A stretch of DNA of 43,854 nt from an uncultured Anaerolineae bacterium (GCA_964449465.1 CAYVBK010000015.1:64001-107854), one strand, 5' to 3'. Positions 4,758 to 35,700 are shown, counted from the stretch's first letter. Numbers and translations: made by a program. Notes: generated by a model from the sequence alone, not told the origin.

Positions 4758-4892
4758 CCTATGAGGCCGCTGAAAAAATCTATTTTTACCACAAAGGACA
4801 CTGAGAAAAGTTTTGCAATACTTGAGTTTTTAGGAATGCTTTGTGTCCTTTGTGTCTTGGTGGTGAGGGAGTTTTTCAGCACGCTCCTATGC
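4758..4892 (+). repeat. MITE-like palindromic dispersed repeat, copy A
   Basis: Termini read cctatgaggccgctgaaaaa ... tttttcagcacgctcctatg. Internal arms are ccacaaaggacac / gtgtcctttgtg. It is ~90% identical to copies at 17212-17349 (reverse orientation) and 23297-23436. The ORF 4761..5042 overlaps it and is rejected. Confidence 0.8.
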
Positions 4893-4962
4893 TATCAGGG
4901 TTATGTGGGCGTGCGGCACGCCCACGTGCCAGACTCTATCTATTCAGCTGGAACGAAACACA

Positions 4963-4996
4963 CCCAAAACGTAAAGGCCTGGACATATCAAATGCC
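4963..4996. terminator. Bidirectional rho-independent terminator
   Basis: The sequence is aaaGGCCTGG-acatatcaaatg-CCAGGCC-ttttt, between the convergent S2P (+) and amidohydrolase-like (-) genes. A second perfect 9-bp hairpin GTGGGCGTG-cgg-CACGCCCAC lies at 4905-4925. Confidence 0.6.
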
Positions 4997-5040
4997 AGGC
5001 CTTTTTATGTTGCCCTGTGAACCAGGCTGGTTCAATCTAT

Positions 5041-5090
5041 AGTGTACTCATTAGTACACCTTTGGTGTACTCGCTAGTATACTAATCATC
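5041..5090. promoter_or_regulatory. Phased array of GTRTACT half-sites (candidate protein-binding array)
   Basis: Sites are AGTGTACT (5041-5048), AGTACAC (5053-5059), GGTGTACT (5065-5072) and AGTATACT (5076-5083), at 11-23 bp spacings, immediately 3' of the gene ending at 5082. The same composite motif recurs at 8328-8358. Confidence 0.4.
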
Positions 5091-6281
5091 CAGATCAAAA
5101 TACTGTTGGGCGTTTTGCCCCAAAAGGCAGCGCAGCACTGTTACAGCATCCTGCTCATCCAACTCGTTGTGAGCCACCATCTCGGCCAGCATCGCCGCCA
5201 GATGCTCGCGGGCGATCCAGGCCTGGGCGCAGATCATCTCGATGACGACGGCCCCGCCACTGATGCCCAACAGCCGGTTCCAGGGCAAGCCTTGAATCCA
5301 GGTTTTCAGCACATGGCAGGCCAGAAACGGCGTCGTGCGCCACAGGTCGCCTACCCCCAGCATCAGGTGAGGCCGGCGGCATGCCAGCGACATAAGAGGG
5401 AACGGGTCGCCGCCCCGATAGAGAGCCACCAGGCGCGCCTGCGGATAGGCATCCAGCCAGGCAGCCAGGCGTTCGATCTGTGCCGGCTGGCTCACCTGAA
5501 CCATCAGCGGGCGATCGGCGCCGGACAGGGCGGACATGAGGCGGTGCAGCAAATAGCTCGACAGGGCTGGTTCGGCGGCCGCGTTGTCCGATTCGCGCCC
5601 CAACAGCCGCCCCAAAGCCCATTGCGCCTGGATCGGCGCCAGCATGACCGCGTCGGGCAGACGAGCGAGGGTAAAAGCCAGACAGCCCTGCTCGACGTTG
5701 CGGCTGACGACCTGCCGCAGCAATTCTTCCAATTGCCCCAGATTGGTGCAAGAGCCGTCTGGCCCCAAATCAGCCCGTTCGGTCGGCCAGATCAGCGGCT
5801 CGATGTCGCTCAGCCAGTTTGTTCCCGGTGTGGCCTCGCCGACGGGCCGGGCCACCAGCACGTGACGAATCTGTGCCTGCCGCAGCAGCAACTCGTACAT
5901 CCCGGCCGCGCCAGATTTCCACAAATAGGCCGAGATGTCTTTCCACGTTCGCTCGTTGATCTCTTCAATGTGAAACAACTCCCACACAGCCCGCAAAACA
6001 GCGCGCCCCAGACCGGTGGCGCGCCAACCCGGCCAGCGGGCGGCAAAGAGATTCCATCGCTCCAGCGGCGGCGCATTGATCTGGCCGAGCAACTCTTGCT
6101 CTGATTCGCTCAGCCCCAATGCGGTGATCTGGTCGGCGGCGCAGGCCAGGAACCACGAAAACAGGTCGTGTCGCTGTGTGGTGCGCGCACTCTCTGGCAG
6201 CAGGCGTTCATACACGTCAATGACCGGCGTCTGCTCGGCGGCTTCGAGCATGCGTTTGCTCAAATCGCGCGGTGTCTGCAT
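5082..6281 (-). CDS. Amidohydrolase-2-like (TIM-barrel) protein with degenerate metal site; hypothetical
   Basis: Balanced composition, unlike the R/Q/P-rich antisense ORF 5106..6104. N-terminal PVIDVYERL occupies the position of the amidohydrolase-2 IDxHxH motif, with the histidines replaced. C-terminus is LLGQNAQQYFDLDD, amidohydrolase-2-like. It is operonic with the upstream SEC-C gene (17-bp gap). Confidence 0.45.
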   Translation of the reverse strand: MQTPRDLSKRMLEAAEQTPVIDVYERLLPESARTTQRHDLFSWFLACAADQITALGLSESEQELLGQINAPPLERWNLFAARWPGWRATGLGRAVLRAVWELFHIEEINERTWKDISAYLWKSGAAGMYELLLRQAQIRHVLVARPVGEATPGTNWLSDIEPLIWPTERADLGPDGSCTNLGQLEELLRQVVSRNVEQGCLAFTLARLPDAVMLAPIQAQWALGRLLGRESDNAAAEPALSSYLLHRLMSALSGADRPLMVQVSQPAQIERLAAWLDAYPQARLVALYRGGDPFPLMSLACRRPHLMLGVGDLWRTTPFLACHVLKTWIQGLPWNRLLGISGGAVVIEMICAQAWIAREHLAAMLAEMVAHNELDEQDAVTVLRCLLGQNAQQYFDLDD

Positions 6282-6298
6282 TCATCCTCTCCCACTGG

Positions 6299-7153
6299 TC
6301 AGGTCAGTTTGATTTTGCTCTGTCCCCAGTTGACGATCCGGCGCAGGGTTTGGCCGCTCAATTTTTTGGCCGAAGGATCCTGGGCGGCTACGGCCGGCCG
6401 GCCTTCGCGATCGGCATAATCGAGGGCATAGTGGGTGAGCAAATAAGCGCGGTGGCGCAAAAATTCGGCCATGTCCGTGTCGGGATGATCGGTCAGGTAG
6501 GCCTGGCGCGCTTGCTGGATGAATTGGAGCAATTTTTCTTGCTCTTCGGCTGGCAAGACGGCGGTGGCACCGGCCAGCCGCAACCGCGTCTCGCCCGGTG
6601 CCATCCATTCGGGCAGAGGCCGCGCCAACAGAATTTGCCCCGCCTGGCCGTGCTGCGCCGCCGCCGTGTCGTGAATGATCAGAGCGCGGTCAAGCAGCAG
6701 GTCGCGGATGTGGACGCAGCCCTGGTCGGGATCGGTCTGCTCCAGCACAAAGGCACTGCCGGGCAGGCTGGCGATCCAGGCATCCAGGGTGACCGCCTCT
6801 GGCTCTTGCAGCGTGTTGGCCACCTCGTCGCGATATACCTCGATCAGACGGCGGCCGCGCGTCCGCAGAGTGTAATCGTGGGCAAACCAGTCAAAAAAGC
6901 GCAGCGACTCGTCTACGCTCATCTGATGGATGGTTTGGGCGGTATAGCGATCTTGCCAGAACAGCCCCAACCCTGCGGCCACATCCTGGACAAATTCGGG
7001 TTCGCGGGCAAAGCCGATCAGGGCGGCGCGCATATCGGACGCGGCGCGCTCCCAGGTCATTCGCTCGGCCTGCTCAGCCTTGTCACGGGCCATACAACAA
7101 CTTTTGTATTTTTTGCCGCTGCCACACGGGCAGAGATCGTTTCGTCCGGGCAT
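6299..7153 (-). CDS. SEC-C motif (SecA C-terminal-type zinc-binding motif) domain protein, motif at N-terminus
   Basis: NDLCPCGSGKKYKSCC begins at residue 5 of the trimmed protein. Start is set at ATG 7153 (MPGRNDLCPC...), with AAAGGA 8 nt upstream. The antisense ORF 6272..7252 is rejected for its junk composition. Confidence 0.7.
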   Translation of the reverse strand: MPGRNDLCPCGSGKKYKSCCMARDKAEQAERMTWERAASDMRAALIGFAREPEFVQDVAAGLGLFWQDRYTAQTIHQMSVDESLRFFDWFAHDYTLRTRGRRLIEVYRDEVANTLQEPEAVTLDAWIASLPGSAFVLEQTDPDQGCVHIRDLLLDRALIIHDTAAAQHGQAGQILLARPLPEWMAPGETRLRLAGATAVLPAEEQEKLLQFIQQARQAYLTDHPDTDMAEFLRHRAYLLTHYALDYADREGRPAVAAQDPSAKKLSGQTLRRIVNWGQSKIKLT

Positions 7154-7169
7154 ACGGGTATCCTTTCTA

Positions 7170-7201
7170 TGGTCAAATGCACTTGTGGTCGAATGCACTT
7201 G
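7170..7201. promoter_or_regulatory. Tandem 16-bp direct repeat TGGTC(A/G)AATGCACTTG x2 (candidate RHH/ParG operator or iteron)
   Basis: Copies at 7170-7185 and 7186-7201 are perfect apart from one base. They lie in the divergent region upstream of parA. Confidence 0.4.
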
Positions 7202-7263
7202 TTTTGTCTCAGTATACCTTACATTGACCTGTTTGGCAACCAGTTTTCATAAATCAAAAGGCA

Positions 7264-7272
7264 TGATATAAT
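7264..7272 (+). promoter_or_regulatory. Extended -10 promoter element TGATATAAT for the parA operon
   Basis: TGnTATAAT at 7264-7272, 28 nt upstream of the ATG at 7301 with GGAGAAG as RBS. A candidate -35 TTGACC sits at 7224-7229. Confidence 0.4.
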
Positions 7273-7300
7273 TCTCCAGTTCATTCTGAATGGAGAAGTC

Positions 7301-8050
7301 ATGCCTCGTGTGATCGCCATTGCCAATCAAAAGGGCGGTGTGGGCAAAACCACCACCACCCTGAACCTGGGCGCAGCCCTGGCCGAGCGCGGCCGCACCG
7401 TGCTGCTGGTTGACCTGGACCCGCAAAGCTCGCTCACCATCGCCTGCGGCCTGGATGCCGAGGGTCGCAGCATGCACGAGGTGTTGGGCAGCGCGACGGT
7501 CGGCAGCAAAACCGTGCGCGATATCACCTGCCCGGTGGCGACTCGACTGTTCTTGGCTCCGTCTGACATTGCTCTATCACGCAGCGAGGCCGGCCTGATC
7601 GTGCGCATGGGGCGCGAGGCGGTACTCAAAGAGGCACTGGCCCCGGTGCGGGCCGACTATGTGCTGATTGACTGCCTGCCCAGCCTGGGCATTCTCACCA
7701 TCAATGCATTGGTGGCCGCGCATGGGGTGCTGATTCCCACCCAATGCGAGTACCTGGCCCTGCGCGGCATTGCCTTGTTTTATCAAACGCTGCACGAGGT
7801 GCGCCGCCTTAACCCCGACCTGAGCGTGCGAGGCATTTTGCCCACTTTTTATGACAGTCGCCTGGTGCATGCTCGCGAGGTGTTGGAGGCCATGAAGAAC
7901 AAGGGACTGCCGGTGCTGCCCGTCACAGTAGGACGGTCGGTGCGCTTTGCCGAAGCAGCCCTGGCCGGGGCGAGCATCCTGGCGTATGACCGGAACAATC
8001 CGGGTGCCGAAGCGTATCGTCAACTGGCCGAGGTGATTGATGAGTCCTAA
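7301..8050 (+). CDS. parA: ParA/Soj/MinD-family partition ATPase (small type Ib ParA, no N-terminal HTH)
   Basis: Deviant Walker [15 protein letters not shown] is present. Length of 249 aa. SD GGAGAAG precedes the start. The 3' end overlaps the next gene by 14 nt. Confidence 0.9.
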
Positions 8051-8330
8051 AAAACGCCCTGTTTTGACCGGCGAAGCAATGGACGATTTGTTTGCCCCCA
8101 CCGGGTCAGCCCGTTCGCCGTCGCCATATGACCAGAAATTTGCCCGCCACACCTACCGCATCAGCGACGACCTGCACCTCAAGCTGACGCAGATCGCCCA
8201 GGAAAAGGGGGTCGGGCTGAATGACCTGGTGCGCTATATTTTTCAAACTTTTGTGCGACAATATGAGGCCGATCAGGTAGACCTGCCGGTGCGCGAATAT
8301 GTGGTGACTCGCTCGCGGCTGAGCGATTGA
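8037..8330 (+). CDS. Ribbon-helix-helix (ParG/CopG-like) small DNA-binding protein, ParA partner
   Basis: 97 aa with a disordered N-tail plus a C-terminal RHH ([29 protein letters not shown]). Its start overlaps the parA stop. Confidence 0.65.
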
Positions 8331-8358
8331 GTATACCATCAGTACACTATGAGTATAC
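8328..8358. promoter_or_regulatory. GAGTATACC-n-AGTACAC-n-GAGTATACT composite motif (same family as 5041-5090)
   Basis: GAGTATACC at 8328-8336, AGTACAC at 8340-8346 and GAGTATACT at 8350-8358, with a 22-bp spacing of the GTATAC cores. Immediately 3' of the RHH gene. Confidence 0.4.
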
Positions 8359-8422
8359 TATTCAGTTTACCTGCTTGTGTGGAAAAGCTGGCCGTTACGT
8401 TTGAACATTGAAGGATGGATGG

Positions 8423-8794
8423 ATGAGTCAAGGGGTAGCCAGAAACGAGGAATGGAATCAGGTAGCCCACGAGGTGATTGACTATTTGCGGCCATTTGCG
8501 CCAGTGATTCTGCTGGGGTTGGAGAGCGCCAGCAGACAGTTGGGCAGGCCGATTGACCGCAAAGAGTTTGTCAACGCCAAATCGGTTTACGCGATTTTAA
8601 AGACATCGTTTGAGCGCGATGAAAGCGATCAGGGGCGACAAACCCTGGAGCAGTTTATCCGCGAACCGGCCCGTCACCACGACGCGCTGGTGACGCTGGT
8701 GGCACAGCGGGCGGCCCAGTCGCCGCAAGACCTGGGCCACAAGCTGGTGGCCATCAGCAACCGCTGGCGAAGCGACAGGCGCGCCCTGCCGTGA
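8423..8794 (+). CDS. Hypothetical protein (124 aa)
   Basis: Start is ATG 8423 after GAAGGATGG. No recognisable domain. Coding-like composition. Confidence 0.45.
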   Translation: MSQGVARNEEWNQVAHEVIDYLRPFAPVILLGLESASRQLGRPIDRKEFVNAKSVYAILKTSFERDESDQGRQTLEQFIREPARHHDALVTLVAQRAAQSPQDLGHKLVAISNRWRSDRRALP

Positions 8795-8815
8795 TGGGTG
8801 GATGACAAACCCGGC

Positions 8816-9670
8816 TCAATGAGCCGGCGAGCTACTCACCGGGCAGGCAGCGATGCCCAAAAAGCCCGGCCCCACATGCGTCCCGATGACCGGCCCCACC
8901 TCGCTGATGTACAAAGAGACGCAGTTGAGCAGCAGACGAGCCTGATCGGCCAGTTCGGCCGCTTCTTGAGGGGCCTGGATGTGCGCCACAGCCACGCGAG
9001 CCGGGGCCGGCCCAATTCGCTGCACCACCTCATCTAATACCCGCTTTTTGGCCCGGGCGCTGGAACGGGCCTTGTCTAGCGGCTCGATTTTGCCCTCGTT
9101 CATGTACAAAATGGGCTTGATGTTGAGCAGCGTGCCGAGCAAACGGGTGGCGCCGTTGATCCGACCCCCCTTGTGCAAATACGCCAGATTTTCCACCATA
9201 AACACTGCTGTGCTTTGAGCGATCATGCGATCCAACAGAGCCAGCACCTGGGCGCGGCTCTGCCCGGCGGCGATGGCCTCGCCGGCCTCGATCACCATCA
9301 GCAGCAGGCCGATGGCCGAAGTGCGCGAGTCTACCACCGAAATCAGATGGGGCGCCACAGCCTGCGCCGCCGACATGGCATTGGGTATCGTGCCACTCAG
9401 CCCAGCCGAGATGTGCAGCGAAATGACCTCGTCGCCGTTGCGGGTCAACTGATCGTACAATTGCACAAACTCGCCTACGGCCGGCTGTGAGGTGGTGGGC
9501 GCCGTTTCAACGCGACCGAGCAGGTTGAAAAATTCGGCCTGGGTGATGCCGCCCATCTCGTCGTAAGCCTGATCTTCGATGATAACTTTTAGCGATACTT
9601 GATGCACATTGTATTTCCATTTAATGTCGTCCGGCAAATATGCCGTGCTGTCTGTCACCAGGTGAATCAT
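8816..9670 (-). CDS. DegV family (fatty-acid-binding) protein
   Basis: N-terminus MIHLVTDSTAYLPDDI matches the DegV start signature. GGAGGAGG lies 6 nt upstream of the start. Confidence 0.85.
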   Translation of the reverse strand: MIHLVTDSTAYLPDDIKWKYNVHQVSLKVIIEDQAYDEMGGITQAEFFNLLGRVETAPTTSQPAVGEFVQLYDQLTRNGDEVISLHISAGLSGTIPNAMSAAQAVAPHLISVVDSRTSAIGLLLMVIEAGEAIAAGQSRAQVLALLDRMIAQSTAVFMVENLAYLHKGGRINGATRLLGTLLNIKPILYMNEGKIEPLDKARSSARAKKRVLDEVVQRIGPAPARVAVAHIQAPQEAAELADQARLLLNCVSLYISEVGPVIGTHVGPGFLGIAACPVSSSPAH

Positions 9671-9774
9671 ACCAGGACCTCCTCCAAAAAATTCTGACGT
9701 AGACTGGTAAATAAAACACCACAGGTATCATTTGGTTTCTGGTTGAGACGTGTCTTGATGCGCAAGGAGATGTG

Positions 9775-17211: not shown

Positions 17212-17349
17212 CTAGGAGCGTGCTGAAAAACCCGCTCACCACCAAGACACAAAGAGCACAAAGCATTTTTAGCGACTCAAAAGTATCGTAAACCTTTGTG
17301 TTCTCGGTGTCCTTTGTGGTAAAAATAGACTTTTTCAGCGGTCTCCTAG
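17212..17349 (-). repeat. MITE-like palindromic dispersed repeat, copy B (reverse orientation)
   Basis: ctaggagcgtgctgaaaaa...tttttcagcggtctcctag. About 90% identical to the reverse complement of copy C. Sits in the divergent promoter region between the thioesterase and aspartate aminotransferase genes. Confidence 0.8.
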
Positions 17350-17513
17350 TGTATGTCGAACCGGTTGTGCTGTCAAGTTGGGTTGCCGGTTTGCTCAAAC
17401 CATGATAAACTGAACATGCTCTCATCGGCGCGGGCATCCTGCTCGCCGCACCGATGGTGGTGGGCGACGCGCTGGAGGCAGATATCCCAACCCTTATTCA
17501 ATCGGAGGAAAAA

Positions 17514-22855: not shown

Positions 22856-22892
22856 ACCAGGTTTGAAGCCATTCAGTTTTCTGGGAGGTTTG

Positions 22893-23300
22893 ATGATGTT
22901 GAACAAATGGGTTTTGTGTCTCGGCCTGGTCATTGTACTGTTGGGCGTTTCGGCCTGCGGCTCGGCCAAAACGGCCGAGATCAAACTGGGCGCAGGCGAT
23001 GATGGGCGCGAGATCGAGCTCAAGCAGGGGCAGGTGATGGCGATCAGTCTGGATAGCAACCCCACTACCGGCTATAGTTGGGCGGCCGTAGACCTGGATG
23101 AGGCCATTCTCCAGTCGGAGGGCGAGGCCGAGTTCAAATCGGAGAGACAGCCGGGAGTGGTGGGCGCCGGCGGCGTCGAAACACTGCGCTTCAAGGCAGT
23201 GAGCACGGGCAAGGTCACGCTCAAGCTGGCCTACCGCCGCTCTTGGGAGCAAAACGTCGAGCCGATCCAGACCTGGAGCGTCTCGGTCATAGTGCGCTAG
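22893..23300 (+). CDS. Chagasin-family (MEROPS I42) cysteine-peptidase inhibitor, lipoprotein
   Basis: Signal plus lipobox LLGVSAC. Conserved chagasin loop motif NPTTGYSW. GGGAGG lies upstream. Confidence 0.8.
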   Translation: MMLNKWVLCLGLVIVLLGVSACGSAKTAEIKLGAGDDGREIELKQGQVMAISLDSNPTTGYSWAAVDLDEAILQSEGEAEFKSERQPGVVGAGGVETLRFKAVSTGKVTLKLAYRRSWEQNVEPIQTWSVSVIVR

Positions 23301-23485
23301 GAGACCGCTGAAAAAGTCTATTTTTACCACAAAGGACACCGAGAACACCAAGACTTACGATACTTTTGGGTCGCTAGAAATGCTTTGTGTCCTTTGTGTC
23401 TTGGTGGTGAGAGGTTTTTTCAGCACGCTCCTAGGGAGGCCGCTGAAAAAGTCGGTTTTCATCACAAAGAACACCCAAGAGGCAA
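23297..23485 (+). repeat. MITE-like palindromic dispersed repeat, copy C (full copy 23297-23436 plus adjacent half-copy 23437-23485)
   Basis: ctaggagaccgctgaaaaagtctatttttaccacaaaggacac...gtgtcctttgtgtcttggtggtgag...ttttttcagcacgctcctagg, followed by a second left arm gaggccgctgaaaaagtcggttttcatcacaaagaacac. Lies between convergent genes. The ORFs 23380..23757 and 23385..23714 are rejected. Confidence 0.8.
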
Positions 23486-26504: not shown

Positions 26505-26756
26505 ATGATGAATCTGGACACGTATATGCCTTCAACTTATCGCGCGTTCATTTTGCGGATGTGGACAGAGCAAGACACGTTTGATGCCATGTCGCCGCCA
26601 TTGTGGCGTTTTAGCCTGGAGAGCATCGGAACACAGGAGGAGCCATCATCAGAGCGGCGCGGTTTTGCCAGCGTAGAAGAACTGCTGGCGTATGTGCAGG
26701 AATTGGCCCTCGCCAATTCGGCTGGGGATAAATCTATTATTCAGGAGGTCAAATGA
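26505..26756 (+). CDS. Small hypothetical protein (83 aa), translationally coupled to downstream giant secreted protein
   Basis: GGGAGAGG RBS followed by an ATG ATG start. The stop TGA overlaps ATG 26753 of the next gene (ATGA). No Cys residues and no signal peptide. Confidence 0.5.
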   Translation: MMNLDTYMPSTYRAFILRMWTEQDTFDAMSPPLWRFSLESIGTQEEPSSERRGFASVEELLAYVQELALANSAGDKSIIQEVK

Positions 26757-29704
26757 TGAAAACTCGTCAGAAATGGATGTGTATGGTATTGATTGGCTTG
26801 TTTGTGTTGGGCCTGGCGTCGTCCGAGTTTGCGCCAATGCGCGCGCCCGTCGCGGCCGCGCCGCCTTGGGCTGCACCGCAAGCGGCGACAGGGACTCTTA
26901 CCGTGACCAGCCTGGCCGACTCGACGGCGAATGACGGCTATTGCACACTGCGCGAGGCGATCATCAATGCCAACAATAACGCGGCTACCTGGCCCGACTG
27001 CCCCGCCGGCAGCGGGCTAGACGTGATTGATTTGACCAGCTTGAGCGGGCAGATTACCTTGCTCGCCAACCTGCCGGAATTGACCGACCCCGCCGGCTTG
27101 TCCGTGCAAGGCCCCGGCGCAGCAACGCTGGCGATCAGTGGCAACGATGCATACCGCATGTTTCGGGTCTTTCAGGATAACCCGCCCATTGATGGGCCGC
27201 TTACAGTGCGCGATTTGACCTTGCGGAACGCCAAAGGGGATAATCCTGGCAGCGTGATTCGCACGCCCAGTGGGAGCGCCGTAGAGGTGTGGAACAGCGT
27301 CATCATCAGCAACACCCACAGCGCCATTTATATTGCGGGCGGCAGCTTGAAGGTGAGCCACACCACGTTTAGCGGCAACACAACCACCGGCGCCGGCGGC
27401 GCCATCCAGGCCGTCAACAACTTTCAGGCTGCGCAGCCGGCCCCCACTGTATGGGTAGATGCTTCCACCTTTATCCGCAACCAGGCGGGTGCCGGCCATG
27501 CGATTGATCAAAACAGCGGCAGCCTGATGCTTGACAACAGCCTGTTTCAGAAGAACGGTGTCACCACCAGCGACGGCTATGGCACGGTGAATTACAGTGG
27601 GAATATGGACATTGTCGTGACAAACTGCCAGTTTCAGGGTAATCAGACCCGGCAGGGCGGCGCGCTGCACGATGCCGGGGGCATGGGCGTAGTCTATATT
27701 GAAAACAGCCGGTTCATCAGCAACACGACGGGGTATACTGCCGGCGTCATTCGCAGCGGCGGCGGGCGCGCCCTCGACATCCGCCGCAGCCTGTTTGTGG
27801 AAAATATGACGACAGAAAAGGGCGGCGTAATTTACAGCTATGCGCCCATCACGGTTACCGCCAGTGCCTTTTATAGCAACACGGCCGGTTATATGGGCGG
27901 CGTGATTATGACGGAAAACGACGCCACCGGCCCGATTACGATCTTGAACAGTCTGTTCCAGAGCAATCACGCCGAGTGGGGCGGCGCGATCTGGTTTGGG
28001 CGTGGTCTATATGTGACAAATACCACCTTTTACACCAACACGGCAGGGTATGCCGGCGGCGCACTGGCCTCGTTTGAGGGCTGGGGCGAAATCAACAACA
28101 GCACCTTCGATCACAACGGGGCCGCCAACGGTGCCGCCTTGTATTTTAGTAACGGCTGGGCGCCACCGATCACGTTGCGCAATACCATCATTGCCAACCC
28201 GTTATGGGGCAACAATTGTCATACCTATACCGGCTCGTACACTGACGGCGGCAATAATCTGCAATACCCCGGCACCAGTTGCAATGCAGCGATCCCAGAA
28301 CTGAATCCGCTGTTAGACCCTGCCGGCCCGCAGGATAACGGCGGCCCCACCTGGACAATTGCGCTGCAAGCCGGCAGCCCGGCGATTGATCGGATCCCGA
28401 CCGGTGGCGTTTGCCCGGCGACCGATCAACGCGGCGCGCCTCGCCCGGTGGACGGCGATGGGGTCGGCGCGGCCGATTGCGACAGCGGCGCGTATGAATA
28501 CGGCAGCGTCGGCCCGGTCACGCTCAGCAAGACGGCGGTGGACGCAAACGGCACACCGCTCAAACCCGGCGACACCATCTCTTACACCGTGCGCGTCGAG
28601 AACACCTTCCCGGCCGCGGTGACCGGCGTGATCGTCACGGACACGATCCCGGCCTACACCACCTACATCCCAGGTTCCGCCGTTCCGCCGGCGACCAGGG
28701 TGGAGAACGTGTTGGTGTGGAGCGGTTTGAGTCTGACGGCCAAACAGGTGCAAACACTCACCCTGGCTGTGACGGTGAACGAGAACGCCGGCGGTCAGGT
28801 GATCAACAATGTGGCCTGTACAGTGCAGCCAGGGGTGTCACAGACCTGCACGCAGCCCGTCACCCCGGCCGGCCCGGATGGCGGCACCGTCACGCCGGTG
28901 TTGGCCTTGGGCAAGACGGCGTTGGACGTGAACGGCGCACCGCTGCTGCCCGGCGACACAATCCGCTATACCATCCAGGTGACAAACAGCCATGCCGTCA
29001 CCGTCACCGGCTTTACACTCCAAGATGCCATCCCCGCGTACACCACCTATGTGGCCAACTCGGACACGCCCGAAGCCGATGCGGACGCCGACCCGTTGGT
29101 CTGGAGCAATCAGACCATTCCGCCGGGCGTCAAGACATACACATTCGAGGTGACCATCAATGCCAACGCCGGTGGACAGAGCATTGCCAACATGGCTTGC
29201 CTGACTCAACAGGGGCTGACGCAGGCCTGTACCCAACCGGTGACACCGCCTGGCGCACCAGGGAGCACGGTTGTGCCAGTGTTGGCCTTGGGCAAGGCGG
29301 CGTTGGACGTAAACGGCACGCCGCTGCTGCCCGGCGACACAATCCGCTATACCATCCAGGTGACGAATCCGCACAGCGTTGACGTATCGGGTGTCGTCAT
29401 CAGCGATGTGATTCCGGCGTATACCACCTACGCGCCCAACTCGGACACGCCCGAAGCGGATGCAGATGCCGACCCGTTGGTCTGGAACAATCAGACCATT
29501 CCGCCGGGTGTCAAGACATACACATTTGAGATCACTGTGAATGTCGGTGCGGTAGGACAAACGATTCGGAATCGAGCTGTGATGCGGCAGCCAGGTCTGA
29601 CAGAGCCAGGCATGACGCCTTGGGTTGAACCATCGGGCGGGGGGCTGGTAAAACAGCTGGTGTATCTGCCGCTGGCGATCAAAGACCTGTCTATGCAACC
29701 ATAA
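26753..29704 (+). CDS. Large secreted protein: signal peptide, CSLREA-like N-terminal motif, right-handed parallel beta-helix repeats, 3 tandem DUF11 (conserved repeat) domains
   Basis: Signal MMKTRQKWMCMVLIGLFVLGLASS. GYCTLREAIINAN matches the CSLREA-domain motif. Gly/Asn/Thr-rich PbH1-like repeats follow. Three ~127-aa repeats carry LKPGDTI(S/R)YT. Confidence 0.8.
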   Translation: MMKTRQKWMCMVLIGLFVLGLASSEFAPMRAPVAAAPPWAAPQAATGTLTVTSLADSTANDGYCTLREAIINANNNAATWPDCPAGSGLDVIDLTSLSGQITLLANLPELTDPAGLSVQGPGAATLAISGNDAYRMFRVFQDNPPIDGPLTVRDLTLRNAKGDNPGSVIRTPSGSAVEVWNSVIISNTHSAIYIAGGSLKVSHTTFSGNTTTGAGGAIQAVNNFQAAQPAPTVWVDASTFIRNQAGAGHAIDQNSGSLMLDNSLFQKNGVTTSDGYGTVNYSGNMDIVVTNCQFQGNQTRQGGALHDAGGMGVVYIENSRFISNTTGYTAGVIRSGGGRALDIRRSLFVENMTTEKGGVIYSYAPITVTASAFYSNTAGYMGGVIMTENDATGPITILNSLFQSNHAEWGGAIWFGRGLYVTNTTFYTNTAGYAGGALASFEGWGEINNSTFDHNGAANGAALYFSNGWAPPITLRNTIIANPLWGNNCHTYTGSYTDGGNNLQYPGTSCNAAIPELNPLLDPAGPQDNGGPTWTIALQAGSPAIDRIPTGGVCPATDQRGAPRPVDGDGVGAADCDSGAYEYGSVGPVTLSKTAVDANGTPLKPGDTISYTVRVENTFPAAVTGVIVTDTIPAYTTYIPGSAVPPATRVENVLVWSGLSLTAKQVQTLTLAVTVNENAGGQVINNVACTVQPGVSQTCTQPVTPAGPDGGTVTPVLALGKTALDVNGAPLLPGDTIRYTIQVTNSHAVTVTGFTLQDAIPAYTTYVANSDTPEADADADPLVWSNQTIPPGVKTYTFEVTINANAGGQSIANMACLTQQGLTQACTQPVTPPGAPGSTVVPVLALGKAALDVNGTPLLPGDTIRYTIQVTNPHSVDVSGVVISDVIPAYTTYAPNSDTPEADADADPLVWNNQTIPPGVKTYTFEITVNVGAVGQTIRNRAVMRQPGLTEPGMTPWVEPSGGGLVKQLVYLPLAIKDLSMQP
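28515..29650 (+). repeat. Intragenic tandem DNA repeat, 3 units of ~381 bp (DUF11 modules); units 2 and 3 ~90% identical
   Basis: ccggtgttggccttgggcaagacggcgttggacgtgaacggc at 28895 matches ccagtgttggccttgggcaaggcggcgttggacgtaaacggc at 29276, a period of 381 bp. Confidence 0.8.
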
Positions 29705-29870: not shown

Positions 29871-29903
29871 CAAGAGCCAGAGCTTGGGCAACTCTGGCTC
29901 TTG
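29871..29903. terminator. Hairpin CAAGAGCCAGAG-cttgggcaa-CTCTGGCTCTTG (12-bp stem)
   Basis: Perfect inverted repeat lying between convergent genes. Confidence 0.45.
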
Positions 29904-29919
29904 TTGATCCTGGCGGAAA

Positions 29920-29957
29920 AAACAAACAGCCGATTGGAATCGGCTGTTTGTTTTTTT
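29920..29957. terminator. Bidirectional rho-independent terminator (A-run, 16-bp stem, T-run)
   Basis: aaaaaACAAACAGCCGATT-gg-AATCGGCTGTTTGTttttttt. Confidence 0.75.
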
Positions 29958-29971
29958 GAGGCGGCGGCCTA

Positions 29972-30400
29972 TCAGGCCTCGGCGATGCGTTTGAGGTTTT
30001 GCAGTGTCTTGTCGGCCATTTCTTCAAAGCTGCTGATCACAATAGATTCGGCCAGCTTGGCCGGGCCGCTCAGCTCGGCTTCGATGGTAAAAGAAAGCCG
30101 GGTGCGCTCACCCATCGCCAGATAATCCCATTGCATATAGCCCTTGTTGGCCGGCCCGACAAATTCGCCTTTCCAGCAGACGCCGGGATCGAACACCACT
30201 ATGGTGGTTTTGGCCGGCAGCGGGATTTTGCTGACCGTGATGCCATGTTCGACTATGGTGCCAACTCCTCCATCGCCATGAATGGATTTGGCCTCCGAGG
30301 CACCATCAAACCAGGTGTGCCACTGTGCCGGATCTTTGGCGACATCCCAAATTTTGGGTATTGGTGCTTTGATCGTAATAGATTTTTCGACTTTGGCCAT
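29972..30400 (-). CDS. SRPBCC (Bet v1/START/polyketide-cyclase-like) ligand-binding protein
   Basis: IKAPIPKIWDVAKDPAQWHTWF is the SRPBCC N-terminal signature. Start trimmed to ATG 30400 after GGGGGAG. Confidence 0.65.
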   Translation of the reverse strand: MAKVEKSITIKAPIPKIWDVAKDPAQWHTWFDGASEAKSIHGDGGVGTIVEHGITVSKIPLPAKTTIVVFDPGVCWKGEFVGPANKGYMQWDYLAMGERTRLSFTIEAELSGPAKLAESIVISSFEEMADKTLQNLKRIAEA

Positions 30401-30472
30401 ATCTCCCCCGCAACACAAAGTAAATAAAAACCAATCTGGTATCTTGGCCTATTTTACCCAGAAATCTTTTGA

Positions 30473-30501
30473 ATGACAACTCGATGCAGGTATGGTATAA
30501 T
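30473..30501 (+). promoter_or_regulatory. Sigma70-like promoter ATGACA-17-TGgTATAAT (extended -10)
   Basis: -35 ATGACA at 30473-30478, 17-nt spacer, TGg then TATAAT at 30496-30501. The ATG at 30562 is 60 nt downstream. Confidence 0.5.
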
Positions 30502-30561
30502 GATAACATCCATGATATGTTTTGTTAGTTCGATTTCTCGGATATTTTGGGGCATTTCAAG

Positions 30562-32601
30562 ATGAATAAACGCTCTTACAAGCGCGAGATGTTCAAATCT
30601 GGGATGGGGCTGGTGTACCCTCGTCTGCCGGTAGTTTATTCGCTGCTGATCGGTCTGTTGGGCGTGGCGGTGTTGGTGCAACTGGTCGAGTATCAGACGG
30701 CCTCTTTTGATCTGTGGGCGCTGCTTGCTTTTGCGGTGGTGGCCATGCTGGTTTCGTATTTTCGTCTGCCCATGGGCCAGGATGGCGCCGAATTGAACCT
30801 GGAAGGGGCTGTGCTGCTTGGGGCCATGCTCACCGGTGGACCAATTGTGGGCGGGTGGGCGGCGTTCATCGCTGGCCTGGCGACAGGTTTGGCGCCGTAT
30901 CTGGCGCAGCGACATGCTCGCAAAGCCTGGATTGAGCATGTGGCCTCGGCAGCATGTCATGGTGGGCGCAATGTGATGGCGATTGGCGGCGCATGGACAG
31001 TTTTGACCGGGTTGGGCGGTTCATTGCACCCGGCGACGGTGCAAGCCAGGACTGTTCTGGCTCTGGTTTTGATGTGCCTGGTCTATGTCTTGCTGCGCCT
31101 GATTCTTTATGTGCCGGTGGTGCTGCTGGCCGGTCGCACCGATGAGCGGGCCTGGGCGCGCACATGGAATCCGACGCAGATTTTGCTAGAATTGGCACCC
31201 CTGCCGGCGGCCTTGCTGATCGCGCCGGTCTGGGCGGCCTGGACATGGGCGCGCCTGTTGACCCTGGCCATAATGCTGGTCGGCGTGGGAGCGTTGGTAC
31301 GTCACATGCGCATGGAGAACCATCAACTGCAAGACCGGGTGCAAGAATTGCTTTTTGCGCAGAGGGTGCATAGAGAGATCGATCGCTCAGCAGGGGACCT
31401 GGATGCGCTGAGCCGGCTGACCCAGGCATGGTGCGCCGAGATTGTGTCGTGTCAATGCGAGATGGGGATATTTGACGCCGCCCAAGACCATGCTGGTGTC
31501 TATGTGCGGCTGGAAGACGGTCGCTGCCTGCCGCCGATGCACATTCCCATCACCACCATGTGGCAGTGGGCGGCCAGCCTGGCTGCGCCCCACCTGGTGG
31601 ATACGCCCGAGTCGTTTGCCGAACTGCCCTTTAACCTGCCGCCGTTCGAGTCGGGCCTGCCGGTGAGCAGCGCATTGTTCATCCCGTTGCATCGCCAGCC
31701 TGCTGCCGCACCCGGCTGCGAACTGCCTTTGCTCGAGCCGGCCGGTGCATTGATTTTGTTGTCGGCGCAACCTCATGCTTTGGGGCCGGCGCAAACGGGC
31801 CGTTTGAACACGGTGGCGCAGGCCCTGAGCACAAAACTGCCGGACATTTTGGCCTTTCAGTCGCGCGCCTGTGAGCCAGAACTATTGTCCGGTTTGCAGC
31901 GCAGGTTAATTTCGCCGTGCCTGCCGCCGTGTGTGGGCTGGGAAGTGGCACTGGCCTGCCGGACTGACTCGCCGGACGGCGGAGTCTGGTATAGCTGGCT
32001 CGACCTGCCCGCTCAAGCAGTGGGCATTGCTTTGGGGCAGATGCAAGGGCAGGGAGCAGCGACAATGCTGGCGGCGGCGGCAGCGCAGGCCTTGTTTCAA
32101 TCGCTGCCACCGCAAATAGATGTAACGCCGGCGCAGATTGTGCGCAACCTGAATGTGTGCCTGAGCGCGGCAGGCAACCCGCCGCTATCGCTGCTTTATG
32201 CGATTTTGGATCAGGATGGCGTGCTGACCTGCGCCGGCATGGGCGCGACGGCGGTGTGGTGGTGGCAGCACGGTCAGAGGCATGTCCAGACAGTCCGTGC
32301 GTCTAGCGCTCCAGGAAGCGAACGCCTGAGCCGGACTGACGACCAAACTGGCCTGGCGCCGGCCTCTGGTGATGTGGTGATTTTGAGCGTGCCCAATTTG
32401 CTGCACGGCTGTAGTGAGAACCAGAACCGCCCGGCCTGGCAGCAATGGTCACTAGCCATTGAGCAGTGGGCCGATGCGTCGATCCAGGACATGGCCGATG
32501 GGCTGCTAAGCGCGTTGATAGACCTGGCGCAGGCCGACGCCGCCGATGGCTCTGGTCGTGCGGTGCTGCTGGTCTTGCGTCGTCAGGAGGATGGGTTATG
32601 A
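30562..32601 (+). CDS. Membrane-anchored sensor phosphatase: N-terminal multi-TM domain, GAF-like middle, C-terminal PP2C/SpoIIE-type phosphatase
   Basis: About 7 hydrophobic helices lie within residues 20-260. C-terminus reads VGIALGQMQGQGAATMLAAAAA...LLYAILDQDGVLTCAGMG, PPM/SpoIIE-like. The stop overlaps the next start (ATGA). Confidence 0.6.
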   Translation: MNKRSYKREMFKSGMGLVYPRLPVVYSLLIGLLGVAVLVQLVEYQTASFDLWALLAFAVVAMLVSYFRLPMGQDGAELNLEGAVLLGAMLTGGPIVGGWAAFIAGLATGLAPYLAQRHARKAWIEHVASAACHGGRNVMAIGGAWTVLTGLGGSLHPATVQARTVLALVLMCLVYVLLRLILYVPVVLLAGRTDERAWARTWNPTQILLELAPLPAALLIAPVWAAWTWARLLTLAIMLVGVGALVRHMRMENHQLQDRVQELLFAQRVHREIDRSAGDLDALSRLTQAWCAEIVSCQCEMGIFDAAQDHAGVYVRLEDGRCLPPMHIPITTMWQWAASLAAPHLVDTPESFAELPFNLPPFESGLPVSSALFIPLHRQPAAAPGCELPLLEPAGALILLSAQPHALGPAQTGRLNTVAQALSTKLPDILAFQSRACEPELLSGLQRRLISPCLPPCVGWEVALACRTDSPDGGVWYSWLDLPAQAVGIALGQMQGQGAATMLAAAAAQALFQSLPPQIDVTPAQIVRNLNVCLSAAGNPPLSLLYAILDQDGVLTCAGMGATAVWWWQHGQRHVQTVRASSAPGSERLSRTDDQTGLAPASGDVVILSVPNLLHGCSENQNRPAWQQWSLAIEQWADASIQDMADGLLSALIDLAQADAADGSGRAVLLVLRRQEDGL

Positions 32602-33674
32602 ACTCGAAAGAGCGAGTGCTGACCGCGTTTGCCCATCAACAGCCCGACCGCGTGCCGATTGACTATGCGGCCAATCCGGGCATAGACGGTCGGCTCAAGG
32701 CCTGGTATGGCCTGGACGCCGCGGATGATGAAGAACTGCGGCAGGTGTTGGGGGTAGATTTTCGGCACGTGGGCGCGCCCTATGTGGGAGCACCGCTGCA
32801 CCCGCCTGTGCCGGATCGCCAGGTGGACATGTGGGGGATTCGTCGCCGTTGGATCGAACACGAGAGCGGCGGATATTGGGATTACTGCGATTTTCCCTTG
32901 CAGCAGGCCACCCTGGACGAGATCGCGGCCTGGCCTATGCCGTCGCCGGACGATTTTGACTATACTCAGGTAGCCGCGCAGTGCCGCCAGATGCAGGCCT
33001 GGTGCGTCTATGCCGGAGACGCCGGGCAGGGTGACCTGATCAACAGCACGGGCATGATCCGCACCATGAGCCAGGTGTTGATTGACCTGATCAGCGACGA
33101 CCCGGCCGGTTTGTGCTATATGGATCGCAAGATCGGCATCCAGCTGGAGGTGTTGTACCGCACCCTGGAAGCGGCGCGCGGCGGCATTGACTTGCTATGG
33201 ATCGGCGAGGACCTGGGCACACAGATCGGCCCGCTGATCAGCCTGAGCCTGTATCGCCGCCATTTGCGCCCGCGCCATCAAAAGTTTGTAGACCTGGCCC
33301 GGCATTTCAACATTCCGGTGATCATTCACTGTTGCGGATCGAGCAGTTGGGCCTTTGAAGATTTTATCGAGATGGGCATTGATGCTGTAGACACGTTGCA
33401 GCCCGAAGCACACAACATGGCTCCGGCCTATCTCAAACAACAGTTTGGCGACCGGCTGGCCTTTCACGGCTGCATTTCGACGGCCGGGCCGGTGGCCGGC
33501 GGCACAGTGCAGGAAACCATAGAGCATGTGCGGCAGACGTTGGAGGTGATGATGCCGGGCGGCGGCTATGCCCTGGCCCCCACCCATATGCTGCAAGACA
33601 ATTCGCCCACCGAAAATGTGGTCGCCATGTACCAGGCAGCGCAGCAGTACGGTCGTTATCGTGCAGTAGACTGA
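32598..33674 (+). CDS. Uroporphyrinogen-decarboxylase (URO-D) family protein (MtaA/CmuA-like methyltransferase fold)
   Basis: Start ATG 32598 with AGGAGG 7 nt upstream. N-terminus is RVLTAFAHQQPDRVPIDYAANPG, the typical URO-D-family start. The track's N-extension to 32466 is rejected. Confidence 0.6.
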   Translation: MNSKERVLTAFAHQQPDRVPIDYAANPGIDGRLKAWYGLDAADDEELRQVLGVDFRHVGAPYVGAPLHPPVPDRQVDMWGIRRRWIEHESGGYWDYCDFPLQQATLDEIAAWPMPSPDDFDYTQVAAQCRQMQAWCVYAGDAGQGDLINSTGMIRTMSQVLIDLISDDPAGLCYMDRKIGIQLEVLYRTLEAARGGIDLLWIGEDLGTQIGPLISLSLYRRHLRPRHQKFVDLARHFNIPVIIHCCGSSSWAFEDFIEMGIDAVDTLQPEAHNMAPAYLKQQFGDRLAFHGCISTAGPVAGGTVQETIEHVRQTLEVMMPGGGYALAPTHMLQDNSPTENVVAMYQAAQQYGRYRAVD

Positions 33675-33686
33675 AAACACAACCCC

Positions 33687-33721
33687 CCGCCCTTCGATAT
33701 GAGGGGCGGGGGGTTATTCTC
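33687..33721 (+). terminator. GC-rich hairpin terminator aaCCCCCCGCCC-ttcgatatgag-GGGCGGGGGGtt
   Basis: 10-bp G/C stem immediately after the URO-D-family gene stop. Weak T-tract (ttattct). Confidence 0.5.
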
Positions 33722-33906
33722 CAGATTTTGCCCAGAGGTTATTTGTGGACGACACGGCTCCAACCTTTGAGCGATGGTCGCCTGCGCCATTGCAAGTGCC
33801 ACCTTCTCAAAGGGTTGCCGGGTGGGGCCGTGCCTGAAAACAAGGACATGTTACCACACCCGTTGATCCCCTGCTTGACGCTCACTTGACGCTTTCAATA
33901 CGCCGG

Positions 33907-35517
33907 TCAGAACCCAGGCTGAACGGCTTGCCCCTGCCCCTCGACCAGCCAGCGATAGGTTTTCTCGATGCGATCCCAATGGTGTTCCCGGTCGAGGGCC
34001 CAAAAGCGGCCAATGACGCCGGCGCATTGCCCCACACCCAACCGGTCACACTCGGCCTCGATCTCGTTGACATACAGCGCGCCGCTTTCCGGCTTTTCGC
34101 CGCGCCGCCCCAACAGGCCATGCACATAGACCTCTGACAAGCCCTCTTGTTTAGCCATACGCAGCAGGGCCTTGAGGTGTTCGACCGAGCCGTGCGAGCT
34201 GTAGAATGAGATGATGCCCAACAGATGCAGGCGCACACCATCGCGCCGGGCTCCTTGCATGGCCCAGAGAAAGGCCGGATTTTGGAAAAAGCTGCCGTCG
34301 GCGATGGCCCGTTCGATACGCAGCCGGTCGGACGGCACCACCCGTCCTGCGCCCAAATGCATGTGTCCCACCTCTGAATTGCCCACCGTCTTGCCTGGCC
34401 GCCCCGGCACGGTGTTGGGCAGGCCCACGGCCTCGCCGGCGGCCTCGATGCGGGTAGCAGGAAAATCGCGCTGGATGGCGTCCATCGTGGGCGTGTCGGC
34501 CTCCCAGATCAGGTTGCCCCAGGTGTCGTCGCGCGCCCCCCAGCCATCGAGGATCAGCAGGGCCACGCGGATGGGCGGCAGGTCGGCCGGCGGGTGGACG
34601 ATCAGCGGCGCGCCGGTCATGGCCGCCGGGCGGGGGATGCCTAACAGGTGCAGCGCGGTGGGGGCCACGTCGGTCAGACCGCCGTCGTTACGCAGCGATG
34701 CGTGGCGCAGCGGATGGCCGGGCGGCGATACCAGCACAAACGGCACCGGGCTGTCGGTGTGACCGGTGTCAATGGTGCCGTCTTCATAATACCACTTTTC
34801 CACCGTGCCATGGTCGGCTGTGACCAGGACCATGACGCCTTGTTCCTGAGCCGTTTGCAGTACACGGCCAAGCTGACGATCTACGGCCGAGACGGCCTGC
34901 TTGATCCGCTCCTTGTCTTCGCTGTGACCGATCACGTCGGTGTTGGCCCAGTTGACCACGATCAGGTGCCAGGTAGGGTCGCGCAAGGCCTCTATGGCTG
35001 CATCGGCGACCTCTTGGGCGCACATTTCGGGCAGCGGCCAATAACCCTCGAACGGGCGCGAGGGGATGATGCGCCAGGTTTCGCCAGGAAACGGATCGTT
35101 GCGTTTGCCGTTGAGGAAATAGGTTACATGCACCCCTTTTTCCGACTCGACGATCTTGATCTGGCGGCGACCGGCGCGGCTGACCGTCTCGCTCAAAGTG
35201 TCGTGGAGAATGCCCAGCGGCGGAAAGGCCACATGCTCCACCAGGCCGGGCCGGTATTCGATCATAGTAGCCCAGTGCGTTTGGATGGGTGAGCGGGGGA
35301 AATGGGGAAATTCGCTGCCGACAAAGGCCTCGGTCAGCTCGATCTCGCGTTCGCCGCGAATGTCGTCAAAAATCACATAATCGCCGTTTTGGATGCGACC
35401 AACCGGCTGCCCATCGGGGCCAGCCAGGAGCAGCGGTTCCATCGTTTCGTCATCCTGGCCGGCGCGGTAGGCCTCGCGGATGGCCTGAGCGATGGGAAAG
35501 AACAAAGAATTGGACAT
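33907..35517 (-). CDS. Cofactor-independent phosphoglycerate mutase (iPGM/GpmI family), circularly permuted domain order
   Basis: Residues 1-~295 align to the C-terminal half of GpmI (IFxxxRxDRxRE, AFPP, ETEKxxHVTFFxNG, NxxNxDMVGH, TADHGN, EMTG...L). Residues ~305-536 align to the N-terminal half (LLILDGWG, MGNSEVGH, AMDRDxRWDR). Start ATG 35517 with AGGAG 6 nt upstream. Confidence 0.85.
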   Translation of the reverse strand: MSNSLFFPIAQAIREAYRAGQDDETMEPLLLAGPDGQPVGRIQNGDYVIFDDIRGEREIELTEAFVGSEFPHFPRSPIQTHWATMIEYRPGLVEHVAFPPLGILHDTLSETVSRAGRRQIKIVESEKGVHVTYFLNGKRNDPFPGETWRIIPSRPFEGYWPLPEMCAQEVADAAIEALRDPTWHLIVVNWANTDVIGHSEDKERIKQAVSAVDRQLGRVLQTAQEQGVMVLVTADHGTVEKWYYEDGTIDTGHTDSPVPFVLVSPPGHPLRHASLRNDGGLTDVAPTALHLLGIPRPAAMTGAPLIVHPPADLPPIRVALLILDGWGARDDTWGNLIWEADTPTMDAIQRDFPATRIEAAGEAVGLPNTVPGRPGKTVGNSEVGHMHLGAGRVVPSDRLRIERAIADGSFFQNPAFLWAMQGARRDGVRLHLLGIISFYSSHGSVEHLKALLRMAKQEGLSEVYVHGLLGRRGEKPESGALYVNEIEAECDRLGVGQCAGVIGRFWALDREHHWDRIEKTYRWLVEGQGQAVQPGF

Positions 35518-35523
35518 GATACA

Positions 35524-35700
35524 CTCCTGAGTCCACTGAAAAAACCACCAAGAACACCAAGTACACGAAGAAAGTCAAGACTTGCATTAATTATTTCAAT
35601 ATTGTATTTGAACAATTTCAAGCTCAACCTGAATTTTCTTTGTGACCTTTGTGTTCTTTGTGGTTAAATCCACCTTTTTTCAGGAGAGTCACTCCTGAGT
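35524..35700 (+). repeat. MITE-like palindromic dispersed repeat, copy D (diverged, longer AT-rich centre)
   Basis: actcctgagtccactgaaaaaaccaccaagaacaccaag...ctttgtgacctttgtgttctttgtgg...ttttttcaggagagtcactcctgagt. The iPGM RBS lies within its left terminal repeat. Confidence 0.7.

Follow-up and report, generated by a model that had tools for sequence, protein, structure and literature searches.

The stretch of DNA analysed here, hereafter the window, is 43,854 nt long and comes from an uncultured Anaerolineae bacterium (GCA_964449465.1 CAYVBK010000015.1:64001-107854). It carries four full hairpin repeats (c1-c4) and one solo repeat end (c3b). We conclude, with a probability of roughly 0.85, that these repeats are non-autonomous DNA transposons, i.e. 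small transposable elements of the miniature inverted-repeat kind (MITEs), presumably mobilised by a DDE-type transposase encoded elsewhere. An initial annotation of the window had proposed a non-autonomous, MITE-like element, and our results agree with this proposal: the repeats have terminal inverted repeats (TIRs) flanked by exact duplications, have no coding capacity and sit in unrelated contexts. Further support came from copies in other genomes, from the insertion site of c4, which is filled in the window and empty in a relative, and from independent assemblies that break inside the copies. The copies and their flanking duplications are listed below, with the strand where one is assigned.

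4763-4886, plus strand: c1, probable type A MITE of 124 bp; 88% identical to c2 and c3, 6 nt short, and the most decayed of the copies
4759-4762 and 4887-4890: c1 duplications CTAT; the same 4 nt on both flanks, non-palindromic
17216-17345, minus strand: c2, probable type A MITE of 130 bp; inverted relative to c1 and c3
17212-17215 and 17346-17349: c2 duplications CTAG
23301-23430, plus strand: c3, probable type A MITE of 130 bp; 93% complementary to c2
23297-23300 and 23431-23434: c3 duplications CTAG
23436-23485, plus strand: c3b, solo left end; tip GAGGCCG, then CTGAAAAA and about two 9-nt units
35529-35690: c4, probable type B MITE of 162 bp; three 9-nt units per arm
35523-35528 and 35691-35696: c4 duplications ACTCCT; AGGAGT on the minus strand

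Identification of the repeat family in the window

All five repeat sites reported by the initial annotation were present on direct reading of the sequence. A repeat search of the window recovered a 138-nt inverted repeat, in which 17212-17349 pairs with 23297-23434 at 93% complementarity, and 4759-4807 and 4822-4889 also joined this pair. The one-arm pattern CTGAAAAAN{8,18}CACAAAGRACAC matched the window 7 times against 0.00 expected, and the 12-mer CACAAAGRACAC, with at most one mismatch allowed, matched 10 times against 0.24 expected; every match of either pattern lay within an element. An nhmmer model of the element ends was built from 17 elements. It detected exactly nine ends, namely two for each of the four full elements and the solo end at 23436-23476, and no ends elsewhere in the window. 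The repeats are therefore real and far beyond chance, at a density of 4.5 copies per 44 kb as counted by the end model, and the window holds no further copies.

The elements are 124-162 bp long and have a G+C content of 35-45%, compared with 60% for the window. The only open reading frame (ORF) starting inside a copy, 4761-5042, had a G+C content at third codon positions of 0.52, against 0.65-0.78 in Pfam-confirmed genes, and no copy has credible coding capacity. A long imperfect hairpin was predicted for every copy on either strand, as the initial annotation had anticipated, with z values of -3.9 to -7.3 for c2, c3 and c4; the fold of c1 was the weakest (z -2.6 and -2.9).

On alignment, the copies form two related subfamilies, type A (c1, c2 and c3) and type B (c4). 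The description of the copies as near-identical holds for c1-c3, which are mutually 88-93% identical and share the tips GAGnnnGCTGAAAAA, but not for c4, whose identity to them is no more than 73-78% and whose tips differ. Type B tips read GA[C/G]TCnnCTGAAAAAA, and those of c4 are GAGTCCACTGAAAAAA and TTTTTTCAGGAGAGTC. Alignment of all ends revealed a common plan. Starting from the tip, each end consists of a 7-nt tip (GAGnnnG in type A, GA[C/G]TCnn in type B), the invariant box CTGAAAAA(A), a spacer of 0-12 nt and, innermost, three tandem 9-nt units, AACCACAAAG, GACACAAAG and nnCACAAAG. These units replace the single arm motif CCACAAAGGACAC that had been proposed earlier. In c1-c4 and 13 related elements alike, both ends carry the tip, the CTGAAAAA box and the 9-nt units, in inverted orientation, and the type A ends read GAGACCGCTGAAAAA and GAGCGTGCTGAAAAA.

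Target-site duplications flank both subfamilies

The termini had been described as CTAGGAG. The inverted ends are indeed present, but they do not include the outer CTAG (CTAT in c1), which represents a target-site duplication of 4 bp. Exact 4-bp duplications were found at all four type A copies examined, namely CTAT at c1, CTAG at c2 and c3, and CCAG at L076, a relative from metagenomes. Since CTAT and CCAG are non-palindromic, the tetranucleotide is a direct repeat of the target and not a part of the inverted repeat; a model with CTAG inside the inverted repeat was thus ruled out by the CTAT/CTAT flanks of c1 and the CCAG/CCAG flanks of L076. A TA-duplication model (IS630/Tc1-type, Correia-like) was also rejected, on the CCAG/CCAG of L076, which lacks TA, on the CTAT/CTAT of c1 and on the 6-bp duplications of type B. 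Correia and IS630-derived MITEs duplicate TA and differ in this from the window family.

For type B, we considered the 11 elements with both tips recognisable among the matches listed, c4 included, and a twelfth from metagenomes. Exact 6-bp duplications flanked 10 of the 12; one more agreed at 5 of 6 positions and one was shifted. The exact 6-mers among the first 11 elements (9/11) were attggt, atggat, atttga, aagaat, aataat, atgtat, accgat, ataaag and actcct, and the twelfth element (metagenome contigs L074/L075/L077) had ATTCCA. These duplications are A/T-rich and mostly follow A-N4-T, with atttga and ataaag as exceptions. A 4-bp duplication with the tips TGACTC...GAGTCA was tried as an alternative and rejected: the two exceptions break the A...T rule yet are still exact 6-mers, indicating that type B duplicates 6 bp and does not combine 4 bp with a longer inverted repeat.

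The duplications also bear on the solo end c3b. It is 78-86% identical to type A left ends (end-model E 4.6e-06), starts one base past the right CTAG of c3 and is truncated where the BTAD regulator gene has its stop codon (23486). Because type A targets CTAG-like sites and each insertion makes two of them, insertion of a new copy in the flank of an older one, by now truncated, would be a simple explanation of c3b.

In two type B copies, the flank past the right duplication resembles the element's own left tip. These are L031 (4106-4260: AATAAT GACTCTA) and c4 (35691-35715: ACTCCT GAGTTTGAAAAAG). The resemblance may be due to chance, to older copies that left remnants, or to a preference for targets that look like the tip.

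The c4 site is empty in a relative

We compared the c4 site with the corresponding iPGM locus of a relative, L084. On the minus strand of the window, the filled site reads gtgaTACAATgtgtcgcatctttttcaaactcAGGAGT, the 162-nt element and AGGAGTgtatcATG, and the empty site in L084 reads gtggTACAATgcgcccgttatttttcttttaaAGGAGTacatATG. With its surroundings, the window site reads gtgaTACAATgtgtcgcatctttttcaaactc AGGAGT, the 162-nt c4, AGGAGT gtatc and the ATG of iPGM, and the site in L084 reads gtggTACAATgcgcccgttatttttcttttaa AGGAGT acat ATG, with a single AGGAGT and without the element. When c4 and one AGGAGT are removed, the window aligns to L084 over the -35 (TTGCCG vs TTGCCC), the extended -10, the leader, the ribosome-binding site (RBS) and the coding start. 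This alignment indicates that c4 inserted in the 5' leader exactly at the RBS hexamer and duplicated AGGAGT. The filled/empty comparison covers c4. Database matches to the iPGM protein were at most 77% identical, and the named ones were 'Anaerolineae bacterium' or 'Chloroflexi bacterium'.

Related elements in other genomes and metagenomes

A scan of 185,579 species-representative genomes returned at least 70 loci. Among the matches listed, dozens of elements lay in Anaerolineae, Caldilineaceae, Roseiflexus, Thermoflexales and other Chloroflexota metagenome-assembled genomes (MAGs), and these Chloroflexota copies adjoined genes of many unrelated kinds. A metagenome scan with a subfamily-specific pattern returned seven loci, of which only L076 was type A. 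This element, the only close relative found in the JGI metagenomes, shares 86-88% identity with c1-c3 and has a response-regulator gene on each side, on a contig of 55% G+C.

A second repeat, a G+C-rich palindrome bounded by AGTAACTnCTCAG...CTGAGnAGTTACT, has inserted into type B MITEs of Anaerolineae and Thermoflexales MAGs, within the loop (L001 ~4290-4385, L057 ~915-1000 and L053 ~7570-7740). Here two repeat families are nested.

Contigs encoding exactly the window's proteins were present in many sequencing runs. Short-read Logan contigs from independent samples broke 22-34 nt inside all four copies: L087 and L088 end 34 nt into c1, L089-L092 start about 25 nt into c2, L093-L095 end 22 nt into c3, and L071 and L072 end 29 nt into c4. 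The parent contig of L089 is 12,383 nt long and covers precisely the interval from c1 to c2. Such breaks inside every copy are the expected behaviour of a de Bruijn assembler on reaching a sequence of which the genome holds further copies.

The calculated coordinates place the other end of L071 in a different repeat. Tandem repeats of 381-384 bp, 79-82% identical, occupy 28527-29566 within the ORF at 26753-29704 (plus strand), which encodes a DUF11 / Chlamydia-PMP-repeat surface protein.

The hairpin as a terminator, RNA structure or REP element

The elements could instead be functional RNA or DNA structures, such as bidirectional terminators, mRNA-stabilising 5' or 3' hairpins or RNase III sites, kept by selection and with mobility secondary or absent. 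A long hairpin, whose stem is bordered by runs of A and of T, is predicted on both strands in all copies. A bidirectional terminator would have a use at the sites of c1 and c3, which have convergent genes on either side, and c2 and c4 appear to lie within 5' leaders. Known MITEs such as Correia also affect transcripts (PMC3184786). When terminators were scored, however, no canonical one (a G+C-rich stem with a T-run within 0-2 nt) was found in any copy. The T-run belongs to the stem, pairing with the A-run 6-10 nt from the main helix, and the earlier suggestion that the repeats act as terminators is thus not supported. Rfam gave no match in the window at the gathering threshold and only generic hairpins at E up to 10; in 17 related loci, its only matches were to rRNA.

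The arms of the hairpin also argue against selection for structure. Among the four type A copies, compensatory pairs numbered 0 of 47, the changes produced wobble pairs or broke pairs, and the covariation term was +1.44. For ten type B elements, each compared with the others across genomes, left arms were no more similar to their own right arms (identity 0.71) than to the right arms of the other, unrelated elements (0.73). These findings indicate that the palindrome exists because both ends need the same motifs. In addition, the exact duplications and the empty L084 site point to insertion and not to conservation, and copies occur in both orientations and in all context types. We therefore regard a structure kept by selection as improbable. 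At the RNA level, a 50-bp hairpin lying in a leader or 3' region may quite possibly have a side effect, which would not be the defining feature of these elements.

The initial annotation had also called the repeats REP-like. Repetitive extragenic palindromes (REPs), and REPINs built from them, would be mobilised as single-stranded hairpins by a RAYT transposase (IS200/IS605-like Y1). The window elements are likewise intergenic, palindromic and multi-copy, and c3 and c3b form a head-to-tail pair. REPs are described as 20-40 bp long and G+C-rich, with a GTAG or CGTC tag at one end (PMC3733652). The window elements, by contrast, are 124-162 bp long and A+T-rich and have no such tag, so that the likeness to REPs did not hold. 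They also have 7-nt tips and duplications of 4 or 6 bp, and Y1 transposition makes no such duplications; Pfam revealed no RAYT-like gene in the window. A REP origin is extremely improbable.

Resemblances to CsrA/Hfq-type RNA motifs, to a DnaA box (TTAACCACA) and to the outside end of IS50 (TGACTCT) were considered and judged coincidental.

Nine-nucleotide units in other phyla

Among the matches listed, hairpins of nnCACAAAG, nnCACGAAG or nnCACAGAG units also occurred in phyla other than Chloroflexota. The hosts were Holophagaceae, Terriglobia, Gallionella, Sulfuriferula, Magnetospirillum, an alphaproteobacterium, Verrucomicrobia, Gemmataceae and Abditibacterium. These hairpins often had no recognisable tip (CTGAAAAA/GACTC) on both sides. 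The loci were selected by our own search pattern, so a frequency is not to be read from them.

Unit number ranged from 2 to at least 8, with L064 at the top. In this Holophagaceae locus (48-129), at least eight perfect tandem 9-nt units CTTTGTGTT are followed by GGTTAAAAAATCTTTTTCAG, indicating that unit number can expand in the manner of a microsatellite. In the alphaproteobacterial locus L020 (6817-6985), two hairpins lie side by side, the first with nnCACAAAG units and the second with nnCGCAGAG units, which points to a broader group of hairpins made of 9-nt units. A solo end CTGAAAAATGATAACCACAAAGAACACAAAGAACACAAAG recurs in an identical position, immediately upstream of one conserved gene, in three related Verrucomicrobia (L049 2222-2272, L067 3998-4048 and L069 1533-1583); on the opposite strand its TTTTTCAG adjoins the GTG start of this gene, and the sequence beyond differs between the genomes.

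These observations raise the question of whether the 9-nt array serves as a platform (iterons) bound by a host DNA- or RNA-binding protein widespread among environmental bacteria, with the MITEs carrying and spreading a regulatory cassette. Unit hairpins occur in many phyla and often without tips, the unit number varies from 2 to at least 8, and the units are better conserved across phyla than the tips. Against this, no candidate host protein was identified, the loci in other phyla were picked by the search pattern, no duplications are definable for the copies there, and a period of 9 bp does not correspond to a helical repeat. DNA transposons commonly have repeated sub-terminal sites for the transposase, and within Chloroflexota such sites account for the same facts. 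We consider the host-platform explanation quite improbable, and favour transposase-binding sites of MITEs for the units.

Search for the mobilising transposase

We searched for an autonomous partner with matching TIRs, as the initial annotation had envisaged, and found none in the window, in related loci, in plasmids or in viral contigs. Pfam detected no transposase domain in the 30 window ORFs. A scan of the related loci for paired ends more than 450 bp apart gave no partner. In an all-against-all BLASTP comparison of 1251 ORFs from the loci, only two-component proteins recurred. The ORFs beside solo ends had the Pfam assignments LysR, GlnA, AsnB, HhH-GPD and PALP, with no transposase among them. 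A blastn search against the PLSDB plasmids gave no match, and two scans of viral contigs gave chance matches only.

Known insertion sequence (IS) groups were then compared with the two subfamilies. IS701 makes duplications of exactly 4 bp and has the end consensus ---YACT-Y--YR; IS1634 makes A/T-rich duplications of 5-6 bp and has 'poorly conserved' ends with the tip consensus C-----YT; the archaea-restricted ISH3 duplicates 5 bp; and IS701, ISH3 and IS1634 are sister groups (PMC2266710). The duplication length of IS701 fits type A (4 bp, 4/4), but its end consensus is matched neither by the tips GAGnnnGCTGAAAAA nor by the full ends, and no such transposase was found near any copy. The A/T-rich duplications of IS1634 fit the 6 bp of type B. 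Its tip consensus is not matched by GA[C/G]TCnn, which is a weak test given the poorly conserved IS1634 ends, and no such transposase was found either. The sister status of the three groups would fit two related MITE subfamilies with 4- and 6-bp duplications. The IS5 group of the IS5 family has the tips Ga/g and a 4-bp CTAG-like target, and we take it to be an equally good candidate source for type A.

Gene contexts of the copies

The gene contexts were as the initial annotation had reported, with the neighbours identified by Pfam. c1 lies 47 nt past the stop codon of an M50 peptidase gene (plus strand), between it and a convergent gene of no known function (minus strand). c3 lies between convergent genes for a chagasin-type inhibitor (plus strand) and a BTAD-AAA-TPR regulator (minus strand). 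c2 separates a divergent 4HBT thioesterase operon (minus strand) from an aminotransferase gene (plus strand), and c4 is immediately upstream of iPGM (minus strand). A consensus scan of the window placed candidate promoters in the flanks and none inside the elements. Two of the sites lie next to copies.

17348-17376, minus strand: predicted sigma-70-like promoter, TTGACA, 17-nt spacer, TACACT; 10 of 12 consensus matches
35719-35747, minus strand: promoter-like site of iPGM, TTGCCG, 17-nt spacer, TACAAT with a TG extension

The first of these sits directly upstream of c2 on the minus strand, and the first two bases of the c2 CTAG at 17346-17349 complete its -10 hexamer TACACT. c2 would therefore be transcribed at the start of the leader, and the predicted promoter places it in the 5' leader of a thioesterase / response-regulator / histidine-kinase operon. 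At c4, the element now separates the promoter-like site from the start codon of iPGM. The AGGAGT at 35523-35528 (minus strand) is the RBS, 5 nt from the iPGM ATG at 35517. The initial annotation held that the repeat provides the RBS context of iPGM; c4 does sit at the RBS, but the AGGAGT beside the ATG is the gene's own, duplicated as the target. At c3, the chagasin-type inhibitor gene (22863-23300) has as its stop codon the TAG within the left CTAG.

Judged from these positions, c2 and c4 would lie within 5' leaders and c1 and c3 in 3' regions between convergent genes. The duplications appear to preserve signals of the neighbours, namely the inhibitor stop codon (c3), the thioesterase -10 (c2) and the iPGM RBS (c4), and the copies may have survived because duplication restores these signals.

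Several other features were observed near these genes. iPGM (33907-35517, minus strand) has the Pfam order iPGM_N, Metalloenzyme, iPGM_N, and the start of the iPGM_N profile (positions 1-131) matches iPGM residues 401-531, so that the protein looks circularly permuted compared with the usual order Metalloenzyme, iPGM_N, Metalloenzyme. The same domain order was found in two relatives, P0001 and P0003. A G+C-rich hairpin followed by a T-run (35765-35795, minus strand; agccctggagaatgaccgccagggcttttttt) looks like a terminator. It lies a short way upstream of the iPGM promoter-like site, the ABC-2 permease stop codon (36301) being about 500 nt upstream of the hairpin, and a simple terminator scan missed it, probably on account of too long a loop. 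Elsewhere in the window, a 38-nt direct repeat (1833-1870 and 1884-1921), 89% identical and 51 nt from start to start, lies between convergent GH31 glycosidase and alpha/beta-hydrolase-cNMP genes. Each of its copies holds a small CGGAATCCCG-type palindrome, and it is unrelated to the MITEs.

Discussion

We propose that the elements are short, gene-less derivatives of DNA transposons, moved by a DDE-type transposase supplied in trans through cut-and-paste or another staggered-cut reaction. Staggered cuts of the target would leave the 4-bp duplication of type A or the 6-bp, A/T-rich A-N4-T duplication of type B. The tip would be the cleavage site, and the CTGAAAAA box and the 9-nt units would serve as transposase-binding sites, the units most likely as sub-terminal ones. 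The hairpin potential would then be a by-product of the same motifs being inverted at both ends. The differing duplication lengths imply two related but distinct transposases.

MITEs are defined by TIRs, flanking direct repeats, a length below about 200-400 bp, the lack of a transposase and a long stem-loop, and the bacterial ones reviewed include Correia/nemis, RUP, ERIC, Nezha and Chunjie (PMC3184786). Every testable feature of bacterial MITEs given there was found in the window family. Like them, its members are 100-200 bp long, non-coding, A+T-rich and intergenic, with TIRs, direct repeats, long stem-loops and many copies. As with Chunjie, copies sit in operons or leaders without destroying them, and as with Nezha, filled and empty sites are found between relatives (PMC3184786). 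The sequence is unrelated to the reviewed MITEs as far as checked, the duplications are 4 and 6 bp long compared with 9 bp in Chunjie (PMC3184786), and the arms consist of at least three tandem 9-nt units, unlike those of the reviewed bacterial MITEs. A parallel for the units comes from Emigrant/Lemi1, in which the transposase is reported to bind short sub-terminal repeated motifs (PMC1636448). In the window family, as in such MITEs and foldback elements of eukaryotes, the ends contain short repeated motifs besides the TIR. Emigrant/Lemi1 is eukaryotic and belongs to an unrelated transposase superfamily, whereas transposase binding in the window family is presumed from the repeated motifs.

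Several points weigh against the MITE interpretation. The search for a partner transposon was negative in the window, about 0.7 Mb of related loci, plasmids and viral contigs. It is unusual for one internal architecture to go with two duplication lengths. The relative that supplies the empty site, L084, is distant, with iPGM 77% identical and synteny lost, so that the difference is not a strain-level polymorphism. The copy number holds for the 44-kb window only, not genome-wide, and the sample is small, with four type A copies for the duplication and covariation tests. It is also odd that the 9-nt-unit array is more widely conserved across phyla than the tips, the reverse of the usual transposon pattern, and this hints at a constraint beyond transposase recognition.

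This last point leads to a tentative idea that we regard as possible but doubtful. The elements may belong to an undescribed multi-phylum 'foldback' MITE superfamily built from the CTGAAAAA box and nnCAC[A/G][A/G]AG units, or the 9-nt array may be a host-factor module spread by transposition. Such a superfamily may range over Chloroflexota, with a related form in Acidobacteriota, Verrucomicrobiota, Planctomycetota and Proteobacteria, and may be moved by transposases not yet linked to it that give 4- and 6-bp duplications.

A literature search of incomplete coverage found no description of MITEs in Chloroflexota or Anaerolineae, and searches with the sequence motifs returned primers only. The family is apparently undescribed, though it is an ordinary kind of element and involves no new biological principle. 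These MITEs break short-read Anaerolineae assemblies at every copy, here in more than 20 samples, and knowledge of their ends will aid scaffolding and annotation. Since copies have inserted in promoters or leaders, with c4 between the iPGM promoter-like site and the RBS and c2 just past a predicted -10, they are likely to give rise to differences in expression among strains of uncultured Chloroflexota, which are abundant in sludge and sediments. With one architecture, two duplication lengths and units common to several phyla, the family may offer a handle on an uncharacterised group of transposases.

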